Source: Chloroflexia bacterium (GTDB lineage: Bacteria > Chloroflexota > Chloroflexia > DTKN01). Taken from it: a stretch of 28,951 bases of DNA. The DNA lies in the NCBI GenBank assembly GCA_049969155.1, contig JBMFPK010000001.1, forward strand, positions 1 through 28,951, read 5' to 3'. Under the pieces are notes generated by a model. That model ran no database searches and was not told where the DNA came from. It saw nothing but the letters and a program-made list of their open reading frames with translations. This document shows positions 16,777-17,289 of this stretch, one piece after another; within the stretch, counting starts at the first letter, position 1; each line of letters begins with the position of its first letter. The position numbers and the translations under genes are program-made.

Positions 16777-17289
16777 TCAGAACCGCAGGTGGCCTCTCAT
16801 CTCCTTTCCCTCCCGTATCCACACGATTTCCGCGGTCTGTCCTGGGGCGATCTCCTGGAGCCGTTGCTCGATCTCGTCGGGCCCCTGTACCCGCGCGCCC
16901 GCCAGGCGAACGATGATGTCACCTTCCCGAAGTCCAGCTGCTTCAGCGGGTGAACCCGGCAAGACGTGCGCCACATAGGCTCCGTCGACCGCCCATCTTT
17001 CCCCCGGCAGGGTGCGAGTCGCGGCGACGCGTGCCCCGAGCCGCGGGCGCTGCGCGGCCACACGGGCGAGAGCCCGCTCGAGCCGCGTCCGATCGAAGCC
17101 GACGATCACCTGGTCGCCGACCACGATCACCGGGACACCGAATTGCCCAGAGCGCGCAACCATCTCCGCGGCAGCGGCCTGATCCCGGCTCACATCCCGT
17201 TCGCGGTAGGCAATCCCTCTTTGCGAAAGAAACTTCTTCGCCAGGTCGCAATACGGTCAGGTTGGCGTAGTGTAGACGATCACTTCCAT
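16777..17289 (-). CDS. Probable selenoprotein: glutaredoxin-like (UPYC) domain fused to a PDZ domain, 170 aa
   Basis: ATG 17289 after GGGAGG translates as MEVIVYTTPT-(TGA 17259-17257)-PYCDLAKKFLSQRGIAYRERDVSRD...GVPVIVVGDQVIVGFD, then a PDZ domain (GAYVAHVLPGSPAEAAGLREGDII). The TGA occupies the first Cys of the Grx CxxC motif. Confidence 0.88.
17223..17241 (-). promoter_or_regulatory. Candidate bacterial SECIS element
   Basis: GCGAAGA-AGUU-UC(U)UUCGC hairpin starting 16 nt after the UGA; the apical loop starts 22 nt downstream with G as second base followed by U. Folded by eye. Confidence 0.6.

Follow-up and report, generated by a model that had tools for sequence, protein, structure and literature searches.

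Within the window, by which we mean the whole 28,951-nucleotide stretch of Chloroflexia DNA analysed here, the minus strand carries a single reading frame at 17289..16777 that comprises 170 codons and a TGA stop codon at 16779-16777. On translation, the sole in-frame interruption is a second TGA at codon 11 (17259-17257), and when this codon is read as selenocysteine (Sec) the N-terminal region of the product contains the sequence T-P-T-U-P-Y-C. The coding sequence (16777..17289, minus strand) is complete as judged from its translation, its full-length alignment to homologues of 170-173 aa, and a search of related genomes that reports the whole frame with one TGA. A Shine-Dalgarno-like GGGAGGG, read directly from the sequence at 17297..17303 (minus strand), lies 7 nt 5' of the ATG, and further into the frame a cis-Pro motif, G-V-P, occupies residues 51-53 and V-G-F-D residues 63-66. 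A first-pass annotation of this DNA had described a strong ribosome-binding site and an ATG at 17289, a TGA at codon 11 in place of the nucleophilic Cys, and a frame that continues through GVP and VGFD into a DegP/HtrA-type PDZ domain, all of which was borne out by inspection, translation and Pfam. It had also remarked that the ORF track reports this gene in truncated form only, and the mechanical ORF list does indeed give nothing but a 138-aa, GTG-started version at 16777..17193.

The UGA at residue 11 (17257..17259, minus strand) falls at the nucleophilic position of the U-P-Y-C active site, where it aligns with the first Cys of the CxxC motif, a residue that is invariant in 123 Cys-type homologues; neither Trp nor Gly ever appears at this column. 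The resolving Cys14, encoded by a TGC codon at 17248..17250 (minus strand), is likewise invariant in the homologue alignment. Residues 1-80 (17050..17289, minus strand) were assigned to a glutaredoxin domain of the thioredoxin fold using Pfam, an AF2 model and Foldseek, with the Pfam Glutaredoxin family PF00462 matching residues 3-62 at an E-value of 5e-19 (68.7 bits against a gathering score of 22.9). In the AF2 model, which was built with 124 homologues (mean pLDDT 89.7), the glutaredoxin fold extends over residues 3-80 and has the topology beta-alpha-beta-alpha-beta-beta-alpha. The features by which a glutaredoxin is recognised are all found, namely U11-P-Y-C14 at the N-terminus of helix 1, the cis-Pro loop and the thioredoxin fold.

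The remainder of the protein, residues 82-170 (16780..17046, minus strand), is an HtrA/DegP-type PDZ domain according to Pfam and to sequence and fold matches, with an L-G carboxylate-binding loop at residues 84-85. The Pfam models PDZ_2 (40.4 bits), PDZ_6 (38.7 bits) and PDZ (32.8 bits) match residues 82-163 with scores that all exceed their gathering scores (E ~1e-10 for PDZ_2 and PDZ_6), the fold matches that of 7l71 (TMt 0.74), and G85 is invariant. Neither a signal peptide nor a protease domain was found in the protein. AF2 places the PDZ fold at residues 86-169 and gives a low-confidence linking loop at residues 91-103; the pTM of 0.58 gives little confidence in how the two domains are oriented towards each other, and so the model does not support an arrangement in which the PDZ groove faces the active site.

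An HtrA-type PDZ domain in this position would most likely direct the redox centre by binding to a peptide tail on a partner or substrate. The main functional rival to this proposal does without substrate recruitment: the PDZ domain would instead serve oligomerisation, or autoregulation of the redox domain, in the manner of HtrA cages. In its favour, the nearest PDZ relatives (HtrA, DegP and DegQ) drive oligomer assembly and allosteric control, and glutaredoxin 1 of Clostridium oremlandii (cGrx1) forms domain-swapped oligomers, but conservation of the L-G loop and the groove-forming residues in 124 sequences fits ligand binding. We regard oligomerisation as a possible role that is on balance unlikely, and we retain the binding of peptide tails as the working proposal for the PDZ domain.

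A search of 5.8 billion proteins identified several hundred glutaredoxin-PDZ (Grx-PDZ) proteins of ~170-173 aa with Cys at the Sec column. The closest protein matches (65-70% identity) are truncated entries of 128-138 aa (P0005-P0007), and the DNA that encodes them contains the identical in-frame TGA after V-I-V-Y-T-T-P-T. Across 40 related genomes, class relatives have TGA at the first-Cys column in 12 published genomes and Cys in 10, a count that leaves out G019 and G039, two unpublished genomes that also show one TGA. A wider set of 80 named species-level loci, drawn from Chloroflexia, Thermomicrobiales, Dehalococcoidia, Anaerolineae and Caldilineae, has TGA at this column in 42 cases and TGC or TGT in 38, and recurrence of the TGA on this scale far exceeds chance. 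The first-pass annotation had proposed that homologues be aligned to see whether they carry Cys or TGA here, and homologues do have one or the other at exactly this position. Sec and Cys have exchanged at least 8 times on the maximum-likelihood tree and 11 times by parsimony, and the tree includes near-identical sister pairs that differ in this residue.

Coding conservation extends to both sides of the UGA. Over the eight codons 5' of it, 43 Sec forms show 1868, 1648 and 4545 nucleotide differences at codon positions 1, 2 and 3, respectively, and none of the 43 has a stop codon within this segment; given the excess of third-position differences and the lack of stops, we conclude that the sequence 5' of the UGA evolves as coding sequence. 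On the 3' side, homology extends over the full length of the protein.

Several other characteristics of the homologues were observed. The base that follows the UGA is C in 40 of the 42 Sec forms (loci L038-L117), as the first base of the Pro codon of U-P-x-C. Unlike these, the Cys forms mostly have Gly after the first Cys (C-G-Y-C). UGA followed by C is a weak, leaky termination context, and selection may possibly have acted on this +4 base or on the Pro residue beside Sec. In three distant relatives (P0134, P0244 and P0270) the glutaredoxin match lies at the C-terminal end, for example at residues 102-172 of 176, which suggests that the reversed order, PDZ followed by glutaredoxin, occurs in other lineages.

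Beginning 15 nt 3' of the UGA, at 17223..17241 (minus strand), the transcript is predicted to form a SECIS-type hairpin, GCGAAGA / AGUU / UCU(U)UCGC, that we identified from folding energies and from the comparison of base pairing in Sec and Cys forms. The hairpin is encoded by the codons for K-(K/E)-F-L-S and is present in all Sec forms. In a per-sequence hairpin census, an uninterrupted stem of 6 bp or more was found in 38 of 40 distinct Sec forms versus 9 of 38 Cys forms; the stem starts exactly 15 nt 3' of the UGA in 30 Sec forms, and the stems of Cys forms are at scattered positions. Loops of the Sec forms read GUU (18), AGUU (10) or GGUU (3), and the mean folding energy of the segment is -9.2 kcal/mol for Sec forms versus -4.0 kcal/mol for Cys forms. 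Across the same columns of the 8-bp helix, 88.5% of cells are paired in 13 Sec class relatives versus 41% in 8 Cys forms.

Pairing is maintained across stems that differ in sequence, including GCGAAGG/CCUUCGC, GUCAAGA/UCUUGAC, GCUAAGG/CCUUAGC and GUGAAAGA/UCUUUCAC, and the stem is found in two registers that are one base apart. The census was performed per sequence because an ungapped alignment cannot score these two registers; strict column-wise covariation over 13 sequences is modest, with one compensatory pair and a score equalled or exceeded in 60 of 500 shuffles. The stem makes use of TTT and CTT codons that are rare in the window, where they account for 23% of Phe and 13% of Leu codons, respectively. 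A longer and different structure given by a 68-nt single-sequence minimum free energy (MFE) fold (z = -1.8) was rejected, as the comparative hairpin alone is common to the Sec forms. No relevant match, and no SECIS match, was returned by Rfam over 16600-17500 at E <= 10, a negative that is uninformative for the hairpin.

The bacterial SECIS (bSECIS) model specifies a loop of 3-9 nt with a G at one of its first two positions, a stem of 4-16 bp, a UGA-to-loop spacing of 16-37 nt, and an MFE of -7.5 kcal/mol or below (PMC13188914). With 7 pairs and one bulged U, an AGUU loop and a spacing of 22 nt, the window hairpin falls within these constraints, and its energy of -6.1 kcal/mol alone, or -7.7 kcal/mol with flanking pairs, is a marginal pass against the -7.5 kcal/mol threshold that places it among the weaker hairpins of the Sec forms. 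As predicted from sequence, the putative family-specific hairpin fits the published bacterial SECIS model. The Cys-type orthologues at loci L042, L049 and L063 keep a 6-7 bp hairpin at the SECIS position after their CxxC codons, and this suggests a decaying SECIS remnant that follows a recent replacement of Sec by Cys.

The source genome is a metagenome-assembled genome (MAG) of 2.69 Mb in 445 contigs and is 94% complete. The first-pass annotation had recommended searching it for selA, selB, selD and tRNA-Sec, and all four were found: selA (573 bits), selB (306 bits) and selD (382 bits) each exceed their curated cut-offs, and tRNA-Sec, which ARAGORN also calls as SeC with anticodon TCA, scores 75 bits against a cut-off of 47. 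The selD gene (contig C92, 1068-2003, minus strand, locus L012) itself has one in-frame TGA, so that its product, the selenophosphate synthetase, is probably another selenoprotein.

Other thioredoxin-fold ORFs with an in-frame TGA were noted in the same genome. A stand-alone glutaredoxin-like ORF on contig C2 (~1094-1309, minus strand, locus L118) has its TGA in the context T-U-G-D-C and is probably a second UxxC glutaredoxin-type selenoprotein. On contig C82 (9-260, minus strand, locus L120), an ORF for a two-domain protein disulfide oxidoreductase of the PDO/AhpF N-terminal type has, in its second domain, the same T-P-T-U-P-Y-C context as the Grx-PDZ protein; this ORF belongs to a known selenoprotein family of the TIGR02187 type.

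Were the TGA at codon 11 a genuine stop codon, the locus would represent the decayed remains of a glutaredoxin gene and would yield only a 138-aa PDZ-only protein, starting at GTG 17193. ORF callers report exactly this version, and the catalogues store close relatives in similarly short form, as in P0005-P0007 and in Atlas clusters of ~158 and ~137 aa. Against this, TGA is fixed at the catalytic column in over half of the species sampled, the codons upstream of it are constrained as coding and free of stops, and the ribosome-binding site and start codon are conserved. A product begun at residue 33 would also be without beta-1 and alpha-1 of the glutaredoxin fold. The TGA is moreover followed by a hairpin that distinguishes the TGA forms, and the genome has complete Sec machinery. 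We consider termination at this codon very improbable.

It is likewise very improbable that the UGA is read through without Sec, whether by near-cognate insertion of Trp or Cys or under a reassigned code. The leaky UGA-C context of nearly all Sec forms would be compatible with such readthrough, but reassignment of the codon is excluded because the gene itself ends in TGA, and homologues have Cys at this column and never Trp or Gly. The gene also has a SelB-type hairpin and the genome a full Sec pathway, and selD and other thioredoxin-fold genes of this genome have single in-frame TGA codons at known Sec sites. Finally, an error of sequencing or assembly that turned TGC or TGT into TGA in an ordinary Cys glutaredoxin-PDZ gene might be suspected in a MAG this fragmented, but it is excluded for practical purposes by the conservation of the TGA across many independent assemblies, with the same codon in orthologues that other studies recovered from other samples and that are 56-77% identical, and by its co-occurrence with a SECIS-type hairpin that is missing from most Cys forms.

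Our interpretation is built on the structure of the gene, the pairing of Sec with Cys in homologues, the SECIS-type element, the predicted folds and the Sec machinery of the genome. Read from sequence, 17289..16777 (minus strand) is with high probability a genuine selenoprotein gene, of a known kind (UxxC glutaredoxin) and an undescribed architecture. The proposal of the first-pass annotation, that a UxxC glutaredoxin-type selenoprotein fused to an HtrA-type PDZ domain is hidden here, is supported by the Sec machinery and by homologues with Cys or TGA. The explanation as a whole, a cytoplasmic two-domain selenoprotein in which a SelB-decoded UGA completes a U-P-Y-C glutaredoxin that is joined to an HtrA-type PDZ domain, is very probably correct.

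In the mechanism we propose, SelB and Sec-tRNA(Sec) would decode the codon-11 UGA as selenocysteine, directed by the hairpin 15 nt downstream within the coding sequence, so that the nucleophile of the U-P-Y-C glutaredoxin active site would be a selenol. If the enzyme works as cGrx1 does, Sec11 would attack a substrate in its oxidised state, which could be a disulfide, a sulfenate or a selenenylsulfide, and Cys14 would resolve the intermediate to give an intramolecular selenenylsulfide; an external reductant would then presumably regenerate the enzyme. The genome encodes a thioredoxin reductase (406 bits), and in this 94% complete genome gshA was not found and gshB was found only below its cut-off. 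On account of this lack of gshA and gshB, thioredoxin reductase or a dedicated flavoprotein would be a likelier reductant than glutathione.

Immediately upstream of the gene, at a distance of 34 nt, lies an ORF for a 454-aa FAD/NAD(P)H oxidoreductase (17324..18688, minus strand) with Pyr_redox_2 and Rubredoxin_C matches and a C-terminal double CPxC ribbon. This flavoprotein is rubredoxin-reductase-like and has no N-terminal redox-active disulfide motif; from its sequence, the tail with two CPxC knuckles looks like a fused zinc-ribbon or rubredoxin-like mini-domain. Downstream, after 20 nt, is an ORF for a 125-aa protein (16379..16756, minus strand) with a CPRC...CGTC arrangement and no Pfam family, followed by a gene for a family-4 glycosyltransferase. 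The N-terminal half of the 125-aa protein is helical, and its identity within the clade is 54-83%. Synteny with the flavoprotein and the 125-aa neighbour is limited to the family-level clade of the window (L038-L041, 4 of the 80 loci), and in two of these four loci the flavoprotein is 0.6-1.6 kb away. A redox relay from the flavoprotein through Sec-Grx-PDZ to the 125-aa Cys4 protein was therefore rejected as a property of the family; we regard the trio as context peculiar to this lineage, and the flavoprotein as a possible lineage-specific reductant.

No neighbour conserved throughout the family was found among the 80 loci; one neighbour cluster, present at 73 loci, proved to be an antisense shadow frame of the Grx-PDZ gene itself. 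The commonest neighbours are one to three tandem, same-strand rubrerythrin-family genes, which flank the gene in 18 of the 80 loci and in 12 of those 18 come after genes for the alpha and beta subunits of 2-oxoacid:ferredoxin oxidoreductase. The two closest family relatives that have a rubrerythrin-family gene carry it immediately 5' of Grx-PDZ. Elsewhere (loci L042-L102, e.g. L043 at 3044-4135 and L054 at 3080-4654), tandem rubrerythrin-family paralogues are located immediately 3' of it. These neighbours are without a rubredoxin domain, and one sequence that was inspected closely has no Cys. The conserved C-terminal tail differs between the paralogue types (G-F-E-P-F, P-F-F-E-G or G-G-W-V), and we take these tails as no more than a hint at possible PDZ ligands.

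The gene context points loosely to oxidative-stress defence. A more specific and distinctly speculative proposal, which we think improbable, is that Grx-PDZ might act as a C-terminus-directed selenol reductase that docks the conserved tails of its partners and so brings them to the Sec/Cys centre. It would belong to a module with which Chloroflexota of anaerobic or microaerophilic habit defend themselves against oxygen and peroxide. The flanking rubrerythrin-family proteins would be the candidate partners, and electrons would come from a local flavoprotein or from 2-oxoacid:ferredoxin oxidoreductase.

Published lists of prokaryotic selenoproteins count UxxC glutaredoxin (PF00462) as verified by experiment, and a Trx7/PDZ family of the CxxU type (NF041199) as predicted (PMC13188914, PMC9312934). 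The first-pass annotation had stated that UxxC glutaredoxin-like selenoproteins exist in bacteria. Its further remark, that the glutaredoxin-PDZ fusion is not known to have been characterised, is in line with our searches: a Grx-PDZ selenoprotein is absent from these two recent family lists (PMC13188914, PMC9312934), and no paper was found that combines glutaredoxin, PDZ domain and Chloroflexi. The family is abundant in databases, where its Cys forms are already annotated as glutaredoxin, YruB-family or, by NCBI, Uxx-star-family proteins, and the Atlas holds the Sec forms as truncated clusters. What is new here is the PDZ fusion, a SECIS particular to this family, and the finding that public catalogues systematically truncate the Sec forms. 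Chloroflexota commonly carry the fusion, yet it is unstudied, and about half of the relatives are wrongly truncated in databases.

These findings do not overturn the current understanding of selenoproteins; they describe a widespread Chloroflexota family that is a mosaic of Sec and Cys members and whose Grx-PDZ architecture merits a family model of its own. Because the Sec members are systematically truncated in gene catalogues, counts of the Chloroflexota selenoproteome are too low. The many independent switches between Sec and Cys, some between near-identical sisters, amount to a natural experiment, and a compact SECIS located inside the K-E-F-L-S codons is useful for the study of how SECIS and coding functions coexist and of how Sec is retained or lost. 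A PDZ-tethered redox centre further suggests substrate targeting through C-terminal recognition, which would be new for glutaredoxins.

Among proteins of known structure, cGrx1 (PDB 7C10) is nearest to the redox domain; Foldseek aligns it (7c10_B) at 43% identity over residues 2-74 with a TMt of 0.91 and an rmsd of 1.2 A. Natively a selenoprotein with a U-P-x-C site, cGrx1 has been proposed to reduce selenoprotein MsrA (PMC7642778). The protein encoded in the window resembles it in being a U-P-x-C selenoprotein with the same fold, cis-Pro and V-G-F-D region; however, cGrx1 is a stand-alone protein of ~84 aa that is reported to be recycled by glutathione, whereas the window protein adds a C-terminal PDZ domain and belongs to Chloroflexota.

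Small redoxins of several further families share only the first of the two domains. The best NCBIfam match is the YruB family TIGR02196, at a borderline 88.6 bits against a cut-off of 88.55 (0.05 bits), and the NrdH-like redoxin BC3987 of Bacillus cereus (3ZIJ) superposes on the redox domain with a TMt of 0.89. YruB, the NrdH redoxins and BC3987 resemble the window protein in form, as small CxxC redoxins, and in the G-F-D/R region, but they are single-domain Cys proteins. The Uxx-star family NF041212 also scores above its cut-off (74.2 versus 66 bits); the Uxx-star families (NF041212, with subfamilies NF041114, NF041211 and NF047338) are ~70 aa long and named for a C-terminal U-x-x-stop Sec tail. 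We rejected assignment to Uxx-star, as the window protein has no tail of this kind: its match ends at profile position 66 of 70, after which the chain runs on for 100 residues into the PDZ domain.

Both sequence (E 3e-9 to 1e-7) and fold assign the PDZ domain to the HtrA/DegP/DegQ type, but the window protein is without the trypsin-like protease domain (Ser-His-Asp triad) of these proteins and has its PDZ C-terminal of a redox domain. Identity as an HtrA/DegP protease was rejected, with TIGR02037 matching at positions 234-321 of 434 only (54 bits versus 416). A known family of comparable architecture is Trx7/PDZ (NF041199), a predicted selenoprotein of bacteria in which, as in the window protein, a PDZ domain accompanies a redox domain of the thioredoxin fold. 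It differs in having a Thioredoxin_7 domain, a CxxU motif with Sec in the second position in place of UxxC, and a model length of ~390 aa, and the window protein was not filed there because it scores 32.3 bits against a cut-off of 300, through the PDZ region only. NF041199 and Grx-PDZ are independent fusions and constitute separate families.
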